Sequence record: PQ593108.1
From: Escherichia phage MirsaeidiM_Esher7
Strand: one strand, 5' to 3'
DNA: 40,430 nucleotides
Of this stretch, positions 1 to 40,430 are shown piece after piece. Positions within the stretch are counted from its first letter, which is position 1, and every line of letters starts with the position of its first letter. Position numbers and translations under genes: made by a program. The notes beneath the pieces are model-generated. The model saw only the letters and a program-made list of their open reading frames with translations, had not been told where the DNA came from and did not search any database.

Positions 1-55
1 GGTCTTCAATGGGCGTATTCCCACTCCGTCTTATAGTCCTCTTCAGAGAACGAAC
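1..55. repeat. terminal direct repeat copy, identical to 40376-40430
   Basis: First 55 bp are identical to the last 55 bp of the window; T7-family genomes have direct terminal repeats. The true repeat may be longer than what is represented here. Confidence 0.8.
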
Positions 56-2772: not shown

Positions 2773-3218
2773 TGCGTCACCTCCTTATCTTGCTGCAAGG
2801 CTCTCACAGTGTCCTGAAGGGCCTTAATCCACTTGTCCCCTTTCAGTCCGATGGCGATAAGACGTTTAGCATCTCGTTCGTCAAGTTCGGCGAAATCATC
2901 AATGACGCATCGACCGTCACTTTGCGTGGTTCCACTCGTTGGTTTGACTCGGATGCGCAACCGCTTATTGTCAGACTGAAGGTCAGCAATAATCCTATCA
3001 GTGCTGCCTTCCAGCGAGGACATTTCGTCCTGAAACCGTTTGGACACTTTGTTGACTTCAGCTTGGACAGCAAGCCTTGTATCTTCCGATGCCTTAAGAT
3101 TCGAGGTGTATTCTTCATTGACCTTAGCCTCCCACTTATTGTTAGCGGTGTGGTATCCACCAGCAAACATCACTGCTGCAAGTAACCACGGAGCCGCTCT
3201 CTTTAAAAATTCGAGCAT
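2769..3218 (-). CDS. Rz-like i-spanin (T7 gp18.5-like)
   Basis: 149 aa, N-terminal TM segment ([21 protein letters not shown]), close match to recalled T7 gp18.5; position after small terminase. Confidence 0.9.
2843..3118 (-). CDS. Rz1-like o-spanin lipoprotein embedded in Rz (+1 frame)
   Basis: ORF wholly inside Rz in another frame with lipobox LTISGC after a hydrophobic stretch ([12 protein letters not shown]). Start uncertain: the ORF extends to 3166; I chose the internal ATG at 3118. Confidence 0.55.
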   Translation of the reverse strand: MKNTPRILRHRKIQGLLSKLKSTKCPNGFRTKCPRWKAALIGLLLTFSLTISGCASESNQRVEPRKVTVDASLMISPNLTNEMLNVLSPSD

Positions 3219-3319: not shown

Positions 3320-3583
3320 TTATTGAACACCATACCCGGTGTCATTATCTTCCGTAGCCGAGAGCACCTTATCGTACTCTGCGTTCAGGGCCTCCATATC
3401 AGCCAGAGTCTTCTCGTCGACAGACACCTTGCTTAGCACGAAGTTGTGACGAGCCAGTAGCTTCTCAATGGCGTTGTAAAGCTGAGGTGAACGCTTAGTG
3501 TCATCCCGCAGGTCTTGCAGCATGAGTCGAGCACGTTCAGTATCTAGCATCAAGAGGAACTTCTCTAAGTCCATCTGCGTCAT
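3320..3583 (-). CDS. terminase small subunit (T7 gp18-like)
   Basis: 87 aa; ...FLLMLDTERARLMLQDLRDDTKRSPQLYNAIEKLLARH matches recalled T7 gp18; ATGA overlap with holin stop. Confidence 0.9.
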   Translation of the reverse strand: MTQMDLEKFLLMLDTERARLMLQDLRDDTKRSPQLYNAIEKLLARHNFVLSKVSVDEKTLADMEALNAEYDKVLSATEDNDTGYGVQ

Positions 3584-3886: not shown

Positions 3887-6800
3887 TTACTTCTGTTCAA
3901 GAGCAGAAAGTCTGGCTTCGATTCTTTCCAGTTTTCTTCTCTGATAAGCGGCTTCAGCAAAGAAAATTCCGTCAGGCCGAACACCCCACTCCTCACCCTC
4001 TTCGTGAATAACCACCTCGGTGTACACAGGTTCTTCAGTAGTAGTGACATTACCCTCCTCGTCAGTGTGTTCAATGATTTCATTGTGCGAAAATACCGTA
4101 TCGGTCATCCGTGGATACTTGTCATAGCACAGAACAGCATAACGACAATTCGTACTGTTTTCATCCATCAGACCATGTGCAATGAATACATCACGAATTT
4201 GCTGAGCAATAACCCCGAAGTGAATACGAGCATCATTGCCTTTCAGTTGAACAGCATCTAACCACTGGTACATGATGTAGTGAACGTCACCCCAAGCATC
4301 TAGGAAAGCATCATCAAAAACTACCGGCTCTGTTTTCCTCTCCCCGTTAGAAGTAACAATAGGGTTACTTCCAAGGTATGCAGTGGAGAAACGGTTGCGA
4401 GGCCCACCAAGCGCAGTGACGTTATCGTTATAAGGCTTAACATCAGCAGTCTGGAACAGATGCTCAGCTCCGTTGTAAACTATCCGCCTTGAGTCGGTGT
4501 TATTTGCACCATAAAGCGTAATCTGTGCGCCAGAAGAAGAACTGGTACTGTCGCCTCCGCAAAATATGGTGCGCTGCCCTGCAGGGTTATCAGTCGGTAT
4601 AGATTTCCCGATAAACCCATATTCACCTTCCATTAAAACTTCAGAGCGAATGTTACTACTGGTGCTGGCTCTAATGGTCACATGACCTAAACCCAAATCC
4701 CCTGTAAATTCCATTGGCGCAGGAACAGTGCGAATCCCATTCGTATCAAAAAACACGGGAACAGCTCTGTTAGGTACAGCACCATACCTGAAATCACGGG
4801 AAACATGATTGCTTGGGCCAATCTTCATTTTGTAGCAATACAAATCTGAGGGATGACCATCCGATTTGAATGGGTCCTTCGCTGAGTTATCTCCATATGT
4901 CCATGGGTTAAAATGGTCCTCTCCACCAAACATGTAGTAGATGTAATTATCCTTCACAACTACCGAACCAACACCTACACCTGAGTTAACTATTCCGCCC
5001 TGATAAATCTGGTCAGTGATGTTAACCCATTCAATATCATCTGCATTCCAATTGTTTACATTCAAGCGTGCATAGAAGGTGCGAGGATAAGATGCCTTGT
5101 AACGATCATCTGGTGCACCTGCTTCCCATTCATTTTCTGCACGTTCTGAACCAAACATAATAAGGTCATCCCCTACTTTAGCAAAAGGTAATGTAGTATG
5201 ATGAACATTATGTGGAAATCTCAGTGACTCCCAAGTCTGACCTATGTCTCTACTACGATGCAAAGAGCTACCTAGTCTATCCCCACGAGTACCACGAGTG
5301 ATAAGATACAATACACCATCATAGTACTTGATGCACGGTTCTGACGCATCTGGTTCATACTCAGCTGGTATCTGACGACGAACATAGTTAGCTGGATTGT
5401 CGAAAGCATTAGGGAAGTAGAAGAGTCCAACTTCGCGTGGAGCTACATCGCCTTGATGATAACCCATAACAAAGCCATTGTTATCAATAGTAGCAAAGCT
5501 ATGCACCTCTGTGACACGAGGGATTAGACCAAGGTCTGTCTTACGCCATGGAGACTTATGGAAAGAAGTACCCATGTGCCAATTCTTTCCAGCGTTATTC
5601 AAATCTGAAGTCTGCTGGTTGGATGTAAGAACCGTGAAGTTGTCCTTATCTATTATGGTTGCAACAGTCATATCACCGGATACACCTGTTACCGCAGAAT
5701 TAGAGAAGTTAACAAAATCACCCACGAATAGTCCGTGGTCTGGTACATGTATTGTTGCATATGGCTGATTTGCATCTTTAGTGATACCACCAGTAAGATG
5801 CAGGCTACGAGACATGGGGCGATCCCACAATGCACAATTGGTTAATTCGTTCTTGGCTAAAGTACGTGTTTCAATCATGGCAAACAGACGGTTGCGACAT
5901 ACGCCCATACTCATACAGTGATAGTTCACTGTAGGGTAATCTGGATGCAGATCAGTTAACCACTCTGGAGTAGACCATGTTTGACCATCATCACCAGACT
6001 TAACCCATGATACATGCAGACGACTAACACCATGACGATCGCTACCCATGTAAGGTGCATATATTACATTATCATATACGAACGCTTTATCCTGAGGCCA
6101 CGCATTGTAATAAGGGGTGTCCGTTATTTTGAACAACTCCCCCTGAACAAATTCCTCAGAGGCATAATAAAGAGGTTGTCCGGGAATGCGCTCATAAACG
6201 AAACGAGTGTTGATGAAGCGACTAATGTCAGGCAGGGATGTGACCTTATATGTCTTCCCATTGCCATTAATCTTTTGTCCAACCGGTATGTCGTTTAATG
6301 CGCTCGTTAACGCTGCTGTATCATCAGTGACACCATCCCCTTTAGCACCCCAACCACGAACATCATTTTCATCAAGCCAGCGTGCTCTATGTAATTCAGG
6401 GTAGAGTATTGCCCCTTCCGGGTTTGAAATCTGACTTCTTAAAGCAGCATCACCAACACTAACCCACGCACCTAATCCAATCCCACCAGAAGTTTCAGGA
6501 GTTGAACCAGCAGGAACGTTCTTTGGAAGCGTACCATCCCAGCGGTAATAATCACCATCCTCTTCCCATAGCAGGACCTCGCTCCATGTTGTAACGTTGT
6601 AGCCTTTCTCGAAGGAGCGACGGGTCATATAGCCAATTAGACCAGCTTCCCTGATACTCTCAGCGATTCGGCGTGCTTCGTCCTCGCTATCCTTAGCGTT
6701 GCCAGCAGAGCTACCAGCAGCATCGGCATATTCCTTCGCTAAGTCAACCGTTTGGTCTCGACCTTCTTCTGCAATATGGATAGCCTGAAGCTCTGAATTG

Positions 6801-18799: not shown

Positions 18800-18901
18800 A
18801 TGATAATTCTCCTATTCAATTGAAAGATAAAGTTTATTACTTACTGTATGCCCAATCCGTATGGACTGAAGTAATAGGGAAACCTTGAGTCTGTCTCTTG
18901 G

Positions 18902-18924
18902 TCTCCCTATAGTGATAGTTTAGT
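18902..18924 (-). promoter_or_regulatory. phage RNAP promoter (phi10-like)
   Basis: Plus-strand motif ccctatagtgatagtttagtcc immediately upstream of the capsid gene. Confidence 0.8.
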
Positions 18925-18925
18925 C

Positions 18926-22667: not shown

Positions 22668-22728
22668 CTTGAATCTCCTCTTTAAGTTAAGACTAAAGTC
22701 TATCTTATAGTCATATCTTAGGTCCTAA

Positions 22729-29073: not shown

Positions 29074-29532
29074 TTAACCACGGTCGGAAGTGACCAGTTC
29101 ATTGGTAGACAGCCAGCGTTGCAAGTCAAAACTTGGACACGCCTTAGGTGCTATGTCATGGTGTGCTTTGATTTCTGCCTGAGGATACAGGACCTTCAGT
29201 TCATCAAGCTTGTTGCGCAGGGAGTTCATCTGGGCTGGAGTGAAGTTAGCTTCAAACTGACCCTTAGCGTCAATTCCACCTACAAGGCAGACGCCTACGG
29301 ACTTGGAGTTCCAGCCCTTAACGTGTGACCCTACGACGTTTACCGGTCGTCCCTCTTCCACAGTACCATCGCGCTTGATGATAAAGTGGTAGCCTACGTC
29401 CAGCCAGCCTTGCTGCTTGTGCCACATACGGATGGTCTCTACCCCGATGTCCATCTCTGGCTTGGTAGCCGAACAGTGAACGAAGATAGCGTCAGTCCTG
29501 GACCGTGGGTTGAACTGTACCTTACTTACCAT
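29074..29532 (-). CDS. N-acetylmuramoyl-L-alanine amidase / T7 lysozyme (gp3.5-like)
   Basis: 152 aa; near-collinear with recalled T7 lysozyme (TDAIFVHCSATKP, WLDVGYHFIIKRDGTVE, GVCLVGGID, APKACPSFDL, NELVTSDRG). Confidence 0.95.
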   Translation of the reverse strand: MVSKVQFNPRSRTDAIFVHCSATKPEMDIGVETIRMWHKQQGWLDVGYHFIIKRDGTVEEGRPVNVVGSHVKGWNSKSVGVCLVGGIDAKGQFEANFTPAQMNSLRNKLDELKVLYPQAEIKAHHDIAPKACPSFDLQRWLSTNELVTSDRG

Positions 29533-34043: not shown

Positions 34044-34073
34044 TGTTGTAGCTCCAGTTGTTTAGGTTATAGG

Positions 34074-34121
34074 GTTAATCATGAAGGCCACGACTTTGAG
34101 TCATGACCTTTAGTCTAATCC
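34074..34121 (-). promoter_or_regulatory. conserved imperfect hairpin, candidate RNase III site (R1.1 position)
   Basis: Third copy of the hairpin element, between the phi1.1-like promoter and gene 1.1. Confidence 0.4.
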
Positions 34122-34138
34122 TATAGTGATAGTTTAGG
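34116..34138 (-). promoter_or_regulatory. phage RNAP promoter (phi1.1-like)
   Basis: Plus-strand motif tcctatagtgatagtttaggtt. Confidence 0.75.
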
Positions 34139-34442: not shown

Positions 34443-37124
34443 TTAAGCGAATGCAAAGTCTGAAGACAGAATGTCTTCGATATTCAGTTTACCTTTCTTC
34501 GGAAGCTCAGGCAACTTGTCGCGCTGGCTCTCATGAAGCTGGTATTCAAACTGCTCGTAGAAGTCATGCAGCACATCGTTGTCGCGGTAGGTCTCGACCA
34601 TCGTCTCACGGACACCACGGAACAGATATTCAGCGTCAGCCGGGATGGTCCCGAAGCTATCATGAATCACTGCGAATGACATCACGCCATACTTGCGATG
34701 CGTGTGGACTACAGTCTTGCGTAGGTGACTACCATCTTGTGAGTGGACGAAGTTCGGGCTAATGCCTGACTCCTGCTTGTGCTTGTCCAGCTCTTTCTTC
34801 GTGCCTTTGTTGACGGTAGGCTGAAGGTTGAATGACCCTAAGAACATCAGGTTCAAACGTGTGGTATCCTTCTTGCGGTATTCCTGCCAGACCGGGAAAC
34901 CATCAGGTGTTACCCAGTGTACCGGAAGGCAAGGCTTCAGGATTTCACCAGTCTTCTTGTCCTTCACTTCAGCAGCCAGCAGCTTGGCAGCACCCTGAAG
35001 CCACTTCATCGCGTCAACCGCAGCAACTACGGTCACGCTCACAGCTTCCCAAATCATATTAGCCATGAAGCGAGCCGCTTGGCTTGGCTCGGTGAACATA
35101 GCGCCAGACCCTGAGTCAATCGCTGGCATCACGATGTCCTCATAAACTTGGTCTGCGAAGCCGTACTCTTTCGACCCGTATGCCAGAGTCATGACTGAAC
35201 GCTTAGTGACCTTGCGTGACATACCGTATGTCAGCCACTGACGGGCCAGCTCTCGTGTCCCCAGCTTGATACGTTCGGTAATCTCACCAGTTTTCTTATC
35301 CTCGTGAGTGACCATCTCGTTGTCAGTACCGGTAATCAGCAGGACTTTAAGCTCTTCCTCAATGCGGTCAGACACGATGCGGTAGATGTCTTGGACCTCA
35401 CCGGAAGGCGTCAGGTTTACTGCATGTCCACCGATGTGATCACGAAGCATCGCGCTAAAGTGCTGAATCCCTGAGCATGACCCATCGAACGCTATCGGCA
35501 GTGAGCAGGAGTAAGACAATCCGTGGTGCATTACACCAGCATACTCGAAGCAGAACGCAAGGAAGCAGAACGGAGAGTCTAACTTACCCCACCACTCAAT
35601 GCTGTCCATCGGTGCCTTAGCAGTAGCCATGATGTTGTCGTGGTTATCTTCCACCCACTTGATGCGCTCCTCGAAGGTTACTTTATCAATACCCGCACAG
35701 TTTGCACCGTGGACCTTCAGCCATCTGAAACCGTCAGCACCAATAGGCTTACCGACTGCCAGAGTCAGGAGACCCTTCTGCATGTCGTTACCCTGAGGGT
35801 TGAACATCGGCACAGCGTAGACTCGACCGCGCCAGTCCATGTTGTATGGAAACCAGATGGCCTTGAACTGAGAGAACTTATTCGCTTGGTTGATGATAAA
35901 GCTCAGTGATAATCTGCGTGACTGTCGGGCCTTCTCGCGGCGATAGATACCAGCAGCAGCTTTCTTCCACGCCTTGAGTTCCTCTTCAGTCTCACCAGCA
36001 TAGTCCTCAGGCTTCAGCGGTTCCATCTGAGGGATGTCATCAATAGGCGTGTTGTTCAGCTTCTCGACCATGTTCACCACGTTCAATACCTTCTTGTTCA
36101 CTTTCCAAGGTGTATTTTGAATGATGTTCACAGCGTCATAGACTTCAGGCATGTACACGTCTTCATAACGTGCTACCGCAGACTTAGACCCTAAGCGAAT
36201 CAATGGTAACGGTCTGCGACCTTTGGCCCAGTACCCACCGCCTACTACACCAGTCCACGGTTTAGGTGGAACGACGCAAGGCTGATAGACTGGCGCAATA
36301 CCAGCAAGGCTGAATCCACGTTGTGCCATCTTCTTTACCCAGAAGTCTGACAGGTGGACCATCTCAACGTCAGCCGCCGCATTGCCAGCACCATAACGCT
36401 TAAGCTCTACCAGTTGTGTGGACTGGATGACAATCTCGAGCATCTTGATGCCAACGTGTACCGCTTCGGTAGGACTCCAAGTCCCCCACGCATCTTCCAG
36501 TTGGCCTTGCTCCAGCATGGATGCCTCTACAGCTTGCATGTAGGCTTTCTTGTAGGATGCCCCAGCTCGCTTGTTCAAGTTCTCAGCTATCGCCTTCTTG
36601 AAGTGCTCCTTCTCCTTGTCACGGATGCGACCGAAGCGGATTTCGTCCTCAAGTGTGCGACCTAACGCTGAGGCCATAGGTGTAATCGGTATCCCTTCAG
36701 GCTTGACCAGCTTGGAGAGTATGACCTTCAGTATGATAACCGCAGCGGACTCACAGGAGATGCGAAGAGAGCGGTCCTTGACGGCCTTCTCTTCAGTGCT
36801 CAACGTGGTGAACGCTACGCTAGGACGAGAGGTTGACAGCTTCCCGTCTGGACCTTCGTGCCACTCCTTGACGGCTTGCGCAATCTTAGGAACCAGAGTC
36901 TGCATCAAAGGCTTGGCGACCTGATTGTCTGCCAGTTCCCCTCGCTCAGTCTGTCGCTCAAGGTTCTTGATGAAACGTCGCTCGCCTTCAGTGTATGCCT
37001 CATGCTCAAGCTGAAGCTGCTTGACTGCAAGGTCTTGCCCGTAGTGGTCGGCAAGCAGGTTAAACGGCTCAATTGCGTTCGACACATCAGTGAAGTCGTG
37101 TTTGTCAATAGAGATGACGCTCAT
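34443..37124 (-). CDS. DNA-directed RNA polymerase, single-subunit (T7 gp1-like)
   Basis: 893 aa; near-collinear with recalled T7 RNAP (FNLLADHYG, PVYQPCVVPPKPWTG, IWFPYNMDWRGRVYA, DGSCSGIQHFSAML, VHSQDGSHLR, terminal DILSSDFAFA). Confidence 0.98.
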   Translation of the reverse strand: MSVISIDKHDFTDVSNAIEPFNLLADHYGQDLAVKQLQLEHEAYTEGERRFIKNLERQTERGELADNQVAKPLMQTLVPKIAQAVKEWHEGPDGKLSTSRPSVAFTTLSTEEKAVKDRSLRISCESAAVIILKVILSKLVKPEGIPITPMASALGRTLEDEIRFGRIRDKEKEHFKKAIAENLNKRAGASYKKAYMQAVEASMLEQGQLEDAWGTWSPTEAVHVGIKMLEIVIQSTQLVELKRYGAGNAAADVEMVHLSDFWVKKMAQRGFSLAGIAPVYQPCVVPPKPWTGVVGGGYWAKGRRPLPLIRLGSKSAVARYEDVYMPEVYDAVNIIQNTPWKVNKKVLNVVNMVEKLNNTPIDDIPQMEPLKPEDYAGETEEELKAWKKAAAGIYRREKARQSRRLSLSFIINQANKFSQFKAIWFPYNMDWRGRVYAVPMFNPQGNDMQKGLLTLAVGKPIGADGFRWLKVHGANCAGIDKVTFEERIKWVEDNHDNIMATAKAPMDSIEWWGKLDSPFCFLAFCFEYAGVMHHGLSYSCSLPIAFDGSCSGIQHFSAMLRDHIGGHAVNLTPSGEVQDIYRIVSDRIEEELKVLLITGTDNEMVTHEDKKTGEITERIKLGTRELARQWLTYGMSRKVTKRSVMTLAYGSKEYGFADQVYEDIVMPAIDSGSGAMFTEPSQAARFMANMIWEAVSVTVVAAVDAMKWLQGAAKLLAAEVKDKKTGEILKPCLPVHWVTPDGFPVWQEYRKKDTTRLNLMFLGSFNLQPTVNKGTKKELDKHKQESGISPNFVHSQDGSHLRKTVVHTHRKYGVMSFAVIHDSFGTIPADAEYLFRGVRETMVETYRDNDVLHDFYEQFEYQLHESQRDKLPELPKKGKLNIEDILSSDFAFA

Positions 37125-37193
37125 ACTTAAAGTCCTTGTTATTAGTCTTTCACTTAAAGTCTCTTTGGTCTTTCACTTGGAGTCTTAGACCTT

Positions 37194-37216
37194 GAGTCCT
37201 ATAGTGATAGTTAAGT
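37194..37216 (-). promoter_or_regulatory. phage RNAP promoter-like motif immediately upstream of the RNAP gene
   Basis: Plus-strand motif cctatagtgatagttaagtc with a divergent initiating region (GGACUC rather than GGGAGA); +1 is about 75 nt upstream of the RNAP ATG. Confidence 0.5.
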
Positions 37217-37221
37217 CATAA

Positions 37222-37482
37222 TTACTTGCATATCAGTGGGTTAGCGTGAAGATGACTGAAGTCACCGTGAGTCGTGTGCTTGATGGTTGACCGTTGGTCT
37301 ATCGCCTTCCAGCCTGAGACTAAAAGTTTACCATCGTCAGTGCTCGGTCGTCCACCATACGCCAGACACATCAGTTCGGACTTATGGCCCTCAGCCTCCA
37401 TGCGGCGGTGTAAGAACACGTCACGCTGTATTTGCTCTACACTGCTACGGATAGATGGTCTGTTAATGTATACGGTTTTCAT
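37222..37482 (-). CDS. hypothetical early protein
   Basis: 86 aa; ATGA overlap with the upstream nuclease gene stop. Confidence 0.5.
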   Translation of the reverse strand: MKTVYINRPSIRSSVEQIQRDVFLHRRMEAEGHKSELMCLAYGGRPSTDDGKLLVSGWKAIDQRSTIKHTTHGDFSHLHANPLICK

Positions 37483-37931
37483 TGTTGGTGTTCCCTTAAG
37501 TATTTGATTGCGTTGGATAATACCGCCTGTGAATCGTTAAACTTACCGAGGGCAAGATTACACTCCGTGCAGAGTAGACCTCGTACCTTGCCTGTTACAT
37601 GGCAGTGGTCTACCGCAAGACGCCGCTGGAGTGCGTCAGGATTTCCACATATTGCGCACACTCCTCCTTGCTCCTGAAGCATTTCTGCGTACTGAGCGGA
37701 TGTGATGCCATACCGTTTTTTTAGAGTTGAGTTAAGACACGCGTCCTTGTACGCATCTGACTTACGGTAGCGGCTTCTTAGCTCTTGCGCCATTTTCCCA
37801 GATTTATATTGAGCGATTTTCTCGTTTCGACACTTCTTGCAGTGGCCTTGGTAGCCATCTTTGTTCTTGGAGTCCTTATAGAACTCGCTCTTGGGTTTTA
37901 ATTCTCCACACTTACTACAAGTCTTACACAT
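37479..37931 (-). CDS. endonuclease VII-family (HNH-type) nuclease with N-terminal zinc-ribbon
   Basis: 150 aa; motif GGVCAICGNPDA...LAVDHCHVTGKVRGLLCTECNLALG is the Endonuclease_7 signature; N-terminal CKTCSKCG...HCKKC zinc ribbon. Confidence 0.8.
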   Translation of the reverse strand: MCKTCSKCGELKPKSEFYKDSKNKDGYQGHCKKCRNEKIAQYKSGKMAQELRSRYRKSDAYKDACLNSTLKKRYGITSAQYAEMLQEQGGVCAICGNPDALQRRLAVDHCHVTGKVRGLLCTECNLALGKFNDSQAVLSNAIKYLREHQQ

Positions 37932-38365: not shown

Positions 38366-38515
38366 TCACTCAGTGTGTAAGCTGTCGTGCATACGTTTGC
38401 GGCGCTTATAGACCACCTTCAGGAGACGCATAGACTCCTCGTGGTTTAATCGCCCGGTCTTGACCATAAGCCGGGCGATGGTGACGTGGTGCTGGCAGAG
38501 ACCATAAGTTACCAT
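38366..38515 (-). CDS. small hypothetical protein (49 aa) translationally coupled to the Ocr-like gene
   Basis: ATG overlaps the Ocr-like stop (TGATG), GGAGG within the upstream coding end; basic product MVTYGLCQHHVTIARLMVKTGRLNHEESMRLLKVVYKRRKRMHDSLHTE. Below the ORF-track size cut-off; low confidence. Confidence 0.35.
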   Translation of the reverse strand: MVTYGLCQHHVTIARLMVKTGRLNHEESMRLLKVVYKRRKRMHDSLHTE

Positions 38516-39039
38516 CACTCGCAGTCCTCCTCAGCAGCCTCAGGATCGAACACTACGTTATCGTTGATGTCTTCGACCTGCATGTGAAAACCTTCCTCAT
38601 AGAGTTCTTTTGCACATGCAATAGCCTCGTAAAGTGATACAGCTGCCTCAATTATCTCGCCTGTTCTAGTGTCAACTACCCAATATTCAGCCTTTTCGTC
38701 TTCCTCTTCAGCCTTTTCGTCGCTCTCTTCAGCCTCAAACCAGACTACATCCGAGCTATTAGACACATCGTTATACAGTGCCTCATAGATGCGAGCTTGT
38801 AGTATACGCGTTACGTCCTTGGTCTCAGGCATCAGCCCAGAGTCTTCGAACTCGTGGTCTATACCATCAGCAGCCATCACCGTAAAAATCTCGTGGTAAT
38901 AGTGCGGAACCTGACCGTCTACGACCTCATGCAGCGCATCGCTGTAGTCATCGCCTTCAGCTATTTCGTCGTACTGAATACGCTCATTGAACAGCTTAAC
39001 GGTTTCAGCCAGCAGCTCATAGTATGCGTTACGTTCCAT
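38515..39039 (-). CDS. ocr: Ocr-like anti-restriction DNA-mimic protein (gp0.3) with C-terminal extension
   Basis: N-terminal 118 aa closely match recalled T7 Ocr (VPHYY..IF.VMA..GID.EFEDSGLMP.TKDV.RILQARIYE); an additional 56 acidic residues follow (174 aa total vs about 117 in T7). Confidence 0.85.
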   Translation of the reverse strand: MERNAYYELLAETVKLFNERIQYDEIAEGDDYSDALHEVVDGQVPHYYHEIFTVMAADGIDHEFEDSGLMPETKDVTRILQARIYEALYNDVSNSSDVVWFEAEESDEKAEEEDEKAEYWVVDTRTGEIIEAAVSLYEAIACAKELYEEGFHMQVEDINDNVVFDPEAAEEDCE

Positions 39040-39730: not shown

Positions 39731-39837
39731 TAATTTGAAATAATATTGATTAAGCTATCGTCGGCCCCATGGTGTAAGAGGATATAGTCTTTGACTAACA
39801 TGTCTTTGACCTTAAGTCTATAGCTCTGTGTCTAGTA

Positions 39838-39941
39838 ACTGTAGGTCTATGACTGTAGGTGTTGGTGTCTTATGGTTATGAGACTGTAGGTTAGTGAGAC
39901 TGTAGGTGTAGGACTGTAGGTTAGTGAGACTGTAGGTGTAG
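39838..39941. repeat. array of ACTGTAGGT 9-mers including a perfect 30-bp tandem duplication
   Basis: Six copies of actgtaggt between 39838 and 39937; the 30-mer gactgtaggttagtgagactgtaggtgtag occurs twice in tandem (39882-39911, 39912-39941); two further copies near 40228-40251. Confidence 0.6.
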
Positions 39942-40375
39942 GACGTAATGTTATACTATAACACTATACAGATAGAGACTCAAAGAAGACCTATAGCCCC
40001 TACCTATCGTCCTTCCCTAAGCCATAGCCTAGACCTATCGTTGACCTGAAGTCTTGACCATCGGTCCAACCTTATGATAGACTGGCTGTGACTGCAAGGA
40101 GCAGTAACGGGTAGGGCCTTTGGTATGGACTTAAAGAGGGCCTATGGGGAGACTTGAGGTTCTTGAACTGTGAGATGTGGTCTCAAACTTTTGGTCCAAA
40201 ACTCATCGAAGACTGTGGTGACAGCTACTGTAGGTCAAGGACCGTAGGTCAGGCGACACTAGGATAGACCAATAAGTAGGATGACCCTAAGTGAGCTTCT
40301 CTTAAGGTGTTACCTAAAGTCCTTGACTACAGTAGCTAAGGTCAGTAGAGTAGCGTCAGCTATGAACTGACCTTA

Positions 40376-40430
40376 GGTCTTCAATGGGCGTATTCCCACT
40401 CCGTCTTATAGTCCTCTTCAGAGAACGAAC
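40376..40430. repeat. terminal direct repeat copy, identical to 1-55
   Basis: Exact 55-bp match to window start. Confidence 0.8.

Follow-up and report, generated by a model that had tools for sequence, protein, structure and literature searches.

The stretch of DNA analyzed here (hereafter the window; 40,430 nucleotides, Escherichia phage MirsaeidiM_Esher7, PQ593108.1) is a complete T7-family genome of the K1F-like group (Kayfunavirus), presented as its reverse complement, with all long ORFs on the minus strand. The surroundings of the locus are 96–99% identical to coliphage K1F and its relatives in this genus. The locus itself is the junction between an upstream early gene, a homologue of K1F gp0.38, and gene 1, which encodes the RNA polymerase (RNAP) of the phage (Table 1). 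On the coding strand, this 97-nt gap reads TAA (the gp0.38 stop)-ttatGACTTAACTATCACTATA/GGACTCAAGGTCTA-AGACTCCAAGTGAAAGAC-CAAAG-AGACTTTAAGTGAAAGAC-TAATAACAAGGACTTTAAGT-ATG, where the slash precedes the predicted first transcribed base of a phage promoter, φ1. The gp0.38 stop codon falls 5 nt ahead of promoter position -17. Two similar 18-nt units, repeat 1 and repeat 2, follow the promoter, and a third, partial copy of GACTTTAAGT lies within the gene 1 start region (37122–37137), which is invariant across all K1F-like loci.

Table 1. Features of the gp0.38–gene 1 junction and of a related module, in window coordinates
Feature	Position	Strand	Remarks
Gene 1, T7-type single-subunit RNA polymerase, 893 aa	34443..37124	-	ORF list; 64% identical to T7 RNAP
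Upstream early gene, K1F gp0.38 homologue	37222..37482	-	phrog_7066, function unknown
Phage promoter φ1 (-17 to +6), GACTTAACTATCACTATA/GGACTC	37194..37216	-	predicted start G at 37199
Interrupted hairpin in read-through RNA (predicted)	37150..37207	-	MFE -16.4 kcal/mol, z -2.72
Repeat 1 (AGACTCCAAGTGAAAGAC)	37168..37185	-	apical region and 3' arm of upper stem
Repeat 2 (AGACTTTAAGTGAAAGAC)	37145..37162	-	3' arm of lower stem, then start of conserved unpaired leader
Gene 1 translation start region, AAGGACTTTAAGTATG	37122..37137	-	Shine-Dalgarno AAGGA, then ATG
Paralogous module, φ1.1 promoter (+1 at 34121) and R1.1-type hairpin	34068..34138	-	z -5.43

A PHROGs search of the neighboring early proteins revealed no recognizable DNA-binding regulator or kinase, and several of these proteins are of unknown function. 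Two genes upstream of the promoter lies an endonuclease VII/HNH-like gene (150 aa, 37479–37931, minus strand; phrog_2633, E = 1e-42), which is absent from K1F and most relatives, whose alignment ends at ~37483, and present in the Salmonella phages CHRF_10022 and CHRF_20120. It is possibly a mobile homing-endonuclease insertion. The Ocr-like anti-restriction gene (38515–39039) contains a coding repeat spaced 21 nt (38688–38736, minus strand; CAGCCTTTTCGTC...CTCTTCAGCCT on the plus strand), and arrays of short ACTGTAGGT-type repeats are found near the left end of the genome (39838–40249), with an exact 30-nt tandem pair at 39882–39941. The two ends of the window (1–55 and 40376–40430) are 100% identical over exactly 55 nt, which looks like the k-mer overlap left by an assembler in a circularized contig rather than a genuine terminal repeat, reported to be roughly 180 bp in K1F-like phages. 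Besides being reverse-complemented, the window is probably also permuted.

The promoter stands out clearly from the background. The 14-nt core ACTATCACTATAGG, which φ1 matches exactly, has 15 matches in the genome with at most three mismatches, against 3.3 expected, a count that was reached in none of 100 shuffles; on the coding strand, the core recurs 12–13 times. When scored with a leave-one-out matrix, φ1 reaches 32.7 bits and ranks sixth among 11 strong copies. Genome-wide, only the 13 listed promoter sites exceed 10 bits, and since no other such site lies to the left of φ1, it is the first (leftmost) phage promoter on the genome. It is intergenic, on the minus strand and co-oriented with all genes, and its predicted +1 would produce a leader of 75 nt up to the polymerase ATG at 37124. 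These results bear out the proposal of an earlier note on this DNA, made from the sequence, that a near-consensus phage promoter is found about 75 nt before the RNAP start codon. Moreover, activity on a T7 promoter with the K1F consensus at -12 to -7 has been reported for a T7 polymerase chimera that has the K1F specificity loop (PMC3458549).

The GGA-type start of φ1, which we take to be of the T7 class II type, recurs at the neighboring promoters at 34121, 32475 and 31176. A GGGAGA start, of which several copies had been implied, occurs at a single promoter in the genome (+1 at 18907). The leader of that promoter (18850–18925, minus strand) begins with a strong stem-loop (GGGAGACC...GGUUUCCC, z = -5.8), which resembles the T7 φ10 leader hairpin. 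Elsewhere, two promoter-like sites on the minus strand, 29 nt apart at 22705 and 22734, pair a strong copy (32.8 bits) with a weak one (14.4 bits, ...GATATGACTATAAGA), which recalls the tandem φ1.1A/B promoters of T7, at a different locus.

A σ70 scan found no host-type promoter at the φ1 site. On the coding strand, σ70-like consensus matches are present toward the left end at 39983–39955 and 39586–39557, although the region has no more such matches than expected from shuffling. No terminator-like site was found on the coding strand between 33500 and 40430, including the stretch that leads from these left-end sites to gene 1. Consequently, host read-through and phage initiation should both reach gene 1, and self-transcription of the polymerase gene would follow from initiation at φ1, because no terminator intervenes.

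Conservation strengthens the case for φ1. The 250 nt before gene 1 and the 1.5 kb after it have a promoter-type element in common in all 16 K1F-like loci from IMG/VR, and in none of about 25 T7/T3-like or 38 K11-like loci. The intergenic region (104 nt) was found in 218 deposited phage genomes, with at least 99% identity in 128 of them. Most telling is the behavior of the specificity bases (promoter positions -12 to -8), which in φ1 of phages SFP21B, Eclo03 (03_vB_Eclo_IJM) and L024 read ACCCT in place of ACTAT, while the leader is unchanged. In SFP21B, the promoters carry AAACCCTCACTATAGG both upstream (position 3513) and downstream (7025) of gene 1, where phages of the window type have AAACTATCACTATAGG. 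Since φ1 has thus switched along with the promoter specificity of its sub-lineage, it is very likely functional. Taken together, these comparisons indicate that φ1 is very probably a real promoter used by the phage polymerase. They also favor the earlier suggestion that this polymerase could transcribe its own gene, φ1 being kept in all K1F-like genomes examined, tracking the specificity switch and being followed by no terminator-like site; initiation at φ1 and the positive feedback itself are predictions. Natural variants of the core exist in Salmonella phage KE14 (-4 T to C) and in Escherichia coli phage ASO2B (-3 A to T), which might serve as natural tests of whether the phage needs φ1.

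A promoter in front of gene 1 and a self-transcribed polymerase gene are not new, as they have been annotated in relatives and published for other phages. In Citrobacter phage CR44b (HG818823, 1814–1836), a "predicted promoter" is annotated at the φ1 site, the same sequence being present in K1F, and in PE3-1 (KJ748011, 2874–2896) the same 23 bp are labeled "host RNAP promoter," a label that is unsupported since the σ70 scan is empty at this site. The promoter and leader of CR44b, K1F and PE3-1 are identical to those of the window save for two variable bases in repeat 1, and they are placed in the same way relative to gp0.38/0.42 and gene 1, with no difference in substance. However, the CR44b and PE3-1 records annotate the 23-bp promoter only, whereas the hairpin, the repeats and the homology of the start region described below are annotated in no record. 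A literature search found no transcript mapping or cleavage results for any K1F-like phage. Public records should also be read with care for other features: the T7-type polymerase is often called "N4-like RNA polymerase," the 03_vB_Eclo_IJM record splits it into five CDSs, and three phages that are 79–95% identical to the K1F-like group over this region (Acinetobacter phage vB_Aba_01KA, Enterococcus phage EFA-1 and Staphylococcus phage MBBL139) carry host labels that look doubtful.

Polymerase genes preceded by a cognate promoter are found in several other settings. The contrast that had been drawn with canonical T7 is overstated, since the T7 φOL promoter at nt 405 precedes the whole early region, including gene 1. 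The engineered T7 autogene, in which the T7 RNAP gene is placed under a T7 promoter, was reportedly made by Dubendorff and Studier in 1991 as a laboratory construct needing tight repression. Both it and the window have a polymerase gene under its cognate promoter, which would make expression self-amplifying, but the arrangement in the window is natural and is found in a lytic phage, in which runaway expression would be tolerable, whereas the autogene is artificial. Among natural systems, Pseudomonas phage LUZ100 has a phage promoter, also named φ1, before its own polymerase gene, with a start site that was mapped experimentally (PMC10134795), and Vibrio phage φA318 has the phage promoter phi-A8 upstream of its polymerase gene (PMC4099482). 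In both, as would be the case here, an upstream host promoter primes the loop, and positive feedback or autoregulation has been proposed (PMC10134795, PMC4099482). In contrast to the window phage, which has no recognized repressor, the LUZ100 promoter is tied to a lysogeny module with MarR and an integrase. As for φA318, its promoter precedes a kinase gene as well as the polymerase gene. The promoter in the window is set apart from both by being embedded in a predicted hairpin.

Downstream of φ1, the two 18-nt direct repeats are found where they had been reported, gtctttcacttaaagtct at 37145–37162 and gtctttcacttggagtct at 37168–37185 on the plus strand, 23 nt apart and identical at 16 of 18 positions. 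Such a recurrence (an 18-mer repeated within 40 nt with at most two mismatches) is expected 0.025 times per shuffled genome. The copies are nevertheless constrained very unequally, with 15 variant states in repeat 1 vs two in repeat 2 among the 18 distinct leaders of types A and C. No part of the leader varies more than repeat 1, which holds CC, AC, CA or TC in place of TT, varying freely. In the SFP21B lineage, the two repeats are identical at just 13 of 18 positions, and leaders of type B (L018-22, EcL30g and SalP_792) have three degenerate copies in a different arrangement. A genome-wide search for the repeat unit found no family of sites, the sole other match being at 39819 with three mismatches (AGACTTAAGGTCAAAGAC), and on the coding strand GACTTTAAG occurs only twice, both times in the gene 1 leader. 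Two further candidates were considered and dropped. An upstream reading frame starting in repeat 1 (GUG-AAA-GAC...) is lost in the SFP21B lineage. An antisense promoter opposite the repeats is promoter-like only from -10 to +1 in type B, is interrupted by a 1-nt insertion in type A, and does not match from -17 to -12.

The repeats make better sense as parts of a larger element. In RNA that reads through φ1 from upstream, promoter and leader are predicted to fold together into an interrupted hairpin of 19 pairs (21 with two outer pairs), made of five short helices separated by 2x2, 1x1 and 2x3 loops. The lower stem is formed by UCACU/AGUGA, AGG/CUU and CUC/GAG, with repeat 2 as the partner of promoter bases -8 to +9, of which UCACU is -8 to -4. 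Beyond an AA/AAA internal loop, the upper stem pairs GGUCU with the AGACC that ends repeat 1, while the variable 5' half of repeat 1 falls in the apical region of ~15 nt. The hairpin is predicted in all lineages, read-through RNA having z-scores of -2.72 (type A), -2.04 (type C) and -2.63 (type B), and with a computed free energy of -16.4 kcal/mol it is only moderately stable. RNA that starts at +1 has a z-score of about 0 in types A and C, and it folds alternative hairpins in type B. The two repeats are not equivalent sites; they are parts of a predicted promoter-containing hairpin and of the translation leader. Of the proposal that they might be a "regulatory binding or structured element," the structured element has stood, while regulatory binding has not, given the 15 vs two variant states. 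The element had, moreover, been placed in the leader of the promoter-initiated transcript, but in types A and C the predicted structure is absent from that transcript and is formed with the promoter bases in read-through RNA.

Natural variation agrees with this fold. Variant states per nt amount to 0.14 in the lower stem and 0.20 in the upper stem, against 0.64 in the internal loops and 0.93 in the apical region. In total, five variant states are found in 32 stem positions vs 21 in 26 unpaired ones (Fisher p = 8e-7), a comparison in which variant states are not independent events and in which the 5' arm is also constrained as promoter. Because that arm is the promoter, its conservation is silent on structure. 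Of the five stem variants, four disrupt a pair and one changes G-C to G-U. In type B, three changes (T to A at promoter position -2, loss of one A, and A to T in the 3' arm) give a lower stem of 11 perfect pairs, and the change at -2 is not shared by the next promoter of the same phage. Counting of base pairs in type A found none that was changed on both sides, which is uninformative in both directions, since the sequence is too conserved for covariation to be detectable. RNAalifold recovered the GGUC/GACC stem alone from a mixed alignment of types A and B, because the 3' arms misalign. An Rfam search in E-value mode (36900–37500) returned no family, only a chance snoRNA match (E = 0.41).

The layout of the hairpin is the one expected of a T7-type RNase III site, which should be irregular, about two helical turns long and interrupted by an internal loop. 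RNase III substrates span about two helical turns, and internal loops lead to a single cut and to a protective 3' hairpin (PMC1540722). T7 R1.1 and its homologue in the window fold with the same layout. The comparison with T7 R1, the RNase III site between genes 0.7 and 1, is also instructive, since this hairpin likewise sits immediately before gene 1 and is irregular, with AGGUC in its 5' arm. However, R1 has no significant overall similarity to the window leader, and the sole promoter of T7 at that place is the minor E. coli promoter C, not a phage one. From these models, the most likely role of the hairpin is that of an RNase III processing site, or of a stabilizer for the 3' end of the upstream mRNA; cleavage at the hairpin is a prediction.

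Where the parts of the leader came from can be traced by alignment. Just downstream of gene 1, the φ1.1 promoter of the window is followed by a hairpin, AAGGTCAT...GTGGCCTTCATGATTAACC, whose homology to the T7 RNase III site R1.1, AAGGTCAT...GTGGCCTTTATGATTGACC, is plain and whose lower stem includes promoter bases -4 to +2. Gene 1.1 comes directly after this hairpin, with no second promoter and no A+T-rich stretch, unlike in T7. In the leader of gene 1, the 5' half (GACTCAAGGTCTAAGACTCCAAGT), to which repeat 1 belongs, aligns with this R1.1-type hairpin (GACTAAAGGTC-ATGACTCAAAGT, p about 0.001). With T7 R1.1 itself it has ACTCAAGGTC in common (p = 0.04), while the 3' arm of the hairpin is not homologous. 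The 3' half, from AGAGACTTTAAGTGAAAGA to GGACTTTAAGTATG, aligns instead with the stretch from T7 φ1.1B to the gene 1.1 leader, with a score of 49 vs a shuffle maximum of 35. Within it, repeat 2 aligns with AGAGATTTAAATTAAAGA from the leader of T7 gene 1.1. T7 has the 14-mer GGACTTTAAGTATG in identical form in the start region of gene 1.1; this 14-mer is found at gene 1 in all 16 K1F-like loci and at gene 1.1 in seven T7-proper loci. By contrast, the leader has no detectable similarity to the region upstream of T7's own gene 1 (p = 0.7). To judge by these alignments, the leader is a composite, its 5' half being a paralogue of an R1.1-type hairpin and its 3' half a leader and start region of the T7 gene 1.1 type.

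A close counterpart of the whole arrangement is the T7 module of φ1.1A, R1.1, φ1.1B and gene 1.1 leader (the primary origin region, nt 5848–6009), in which, as here, ACTCAAGGTC follows the promoter and AGGUC opens the upper stem, and which is homologous to the window leader from AGAGA...AAAGA to GGACTTTAAGTATG. The T7 module is, however, located downstream of gene 1, serves gene 1.1 and has two promoters, whereas that of the window is upstream, serves gene 1 and has one; its hairpin 3' arm is remodeled relative to R1.1, so that it pairs with the promoter itself. The AGGUC 5' arm is common to T7 R1, T7 R1.1 and both hairpins of the window, and hairpins that begin inside the promoter also follow other promoters in the window and T7 φ1.1A. 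In T7, AGGUCAU...GUGGCCU occurs in both R1 (3095–3168) and R1.1 (5844–5912), an indication that the RNase III sites on either side of gene 1 are paralogous.

The leader is under strong constraint. Its diversity (π = 0.026) is close to that of polymerase second codon positions (0.028) and five to eight times lower than that of RNAP third codon positions (0.21 overall, 0.13–0.15 in adjacent bins), and none of 20,000 random draws reached so low a value. Conservation is highest in the unpaired stretch that runs from repeat 2 up to the ATG, with 0.11 variant states per nt. Since this stretch is more conserved than the stems, pairing is not the only constraint. In composition, the leader is 62.7% A+T and 64% purine, ranking in the top 1.3% of 75-nt windows for A+T.

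The reading that we favor, with a probability of roughly 0.58, is that gene 1 has two sources of transcripts and that host-made RNA undergoes RNase III-type processing via the promoter-containing hairpin. The first polymerase would be translated from read-through RNA that host RNAP makes across φ1, beginning at the candidate σ70 promoters of the left end. In this RNA, the φ1 region would fold into the R1-like 19-bp interrupted hairpin at the position of T7 R1, and a cut by RNase III would free the gene 1 mRNA while leaving a protective 3' hairpin on the upstream message. Once made, the polymerase would start at G 37199 and transcribe its own gene and everything downstream, amounting to positive feedback. 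RNA started at φ1 would, in types A and C, carry an A-rich 75-nt leader that is unstructured because the 5' arm is missing, followed by a start region of the T7 gene 1.1 type, and should translate well. By analogy with T7, the phage's homologue of T7 lysozyme (an amidase/lysozyme encoded at 29077–29532) could damp the loop.

Part of the same evidence can be read differently. The repeated GACUUUAAGU/ACUUUAAG and the purine-rich AAAGAC/AGAGAC tracts may form a ribosome standby site or enhancer for gene 1, the hairpin being secondary, which we regard as unlikely, although it could coexist with our main explanation. These elements seem to resemble the T7 gene 10 "epsilon" enhancer UUAACUUUA, reportedly described by Olins and Rangwala in 1989. 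Such translation control would fit a purine- and A+T-rich leader that is unstructured from +1, as well as the fact that conservation peaks in an unpaired stretch homologous to the T7 gene 1.1 leader and start, with an identical 14-mer. However, with only two occurrences on the coding strand, GACTTTAAG is no general start-site motif in this genome, repeat 1 varies freely and lacks the TT, and phages of the SFP21B lineage lack the short reading frame beginning in repeat 1. Less probable again is that φ1 and its A+T-rich leader are the counterpart of the T7 primary origin, moved upstream of gene 1, with the GAC/GTC-rich repeats used for priming. T7 origins are T7 promoters, the primary ones being φ1.1A/B (PMC8373140), and the 3' half of the leader aligns with the T7 stretch from φ1.1B to gene 1.1, while the window's own φ1.1 region has a single promoter and no A+T-rich stretch. 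The A+T rank of the leader also points this way, as do six GTC on its antisense strand vs 1.55 expected and one TGGTC primase-type site (37166–37170). On the other hand, the alignment score owes much to the translation start region, 62.7% A+T is modest, and TGGTC, a 5-mer whose match is weak evidence, is missing from type B leaders. An extended form of this idea, to which we give the same small chance, has a relocated T7-type primary-origin module doubling as replication origin and as 5'-end switch for polymerase mRNAs; with the promoter as 5' arm of the processing hairpin, host-made and phage-made mRNAs would then differ at the 5' end.

Two simpler explanations fare worse. That the direct repeats are operators, bound by a phage or host protein controlling φ1 or gene 1 much like the MarR sites proposed around the polymerase promoter of LUZ100, is suggested by the presence, shortly after a promoter, of two 18-nt copies spaced 23 nt, in a leader that is strongly constrained throughout and near several early genes whose products are of unknown function. 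Yet operators would sit poorly with the unequal constraint on the copies, the degenerate repeat 1 of the SFP21B lineage and the different number and arrangement of copies in type B. Moreover, elsewhere in the genome the unit has one three-mismatch match, and the PHROGs search recognized no DNA-binding regulator nearby, which makes this explanation very improbable. Slightly less credible still is that the promoter-like sequence and the repeats remain from a duplicated φ1.1 module and no longer have a function. The clear paralogy with the φ1.1/R1.1 region and the leader of T7 gene 1.1 would agree with this, as would the changes that KE14 and ASO2B carry in the core. However, a relic would not have kept pace with the specificity switch, as φ1 did, nor does the low diversity of the leader relative to synonymous-type sites, or its retention in 218 genomes, suit one.

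What is added here to the promoter annotated in relatives is that the "repeats" belong to a promoter-containing hairpin and a leader built from relocated T7-group parts. If our main reading is correct, host RNAP would first provide gene 1 with a processed read-through RNA, and the phage enzyme would then provide one with an unprocessed, unstructured leader, which differs from the textbook scheme for T7. This would be relevant to users of the K1F polymerase and promoter as orthogonal expression tools, and to the engineering of K1F for therapy. More generally, the locus suggests that T7-group cassettes composed of a promoter, an RNase III hairpin and a translation start region have been reshuffled between gene junctions.
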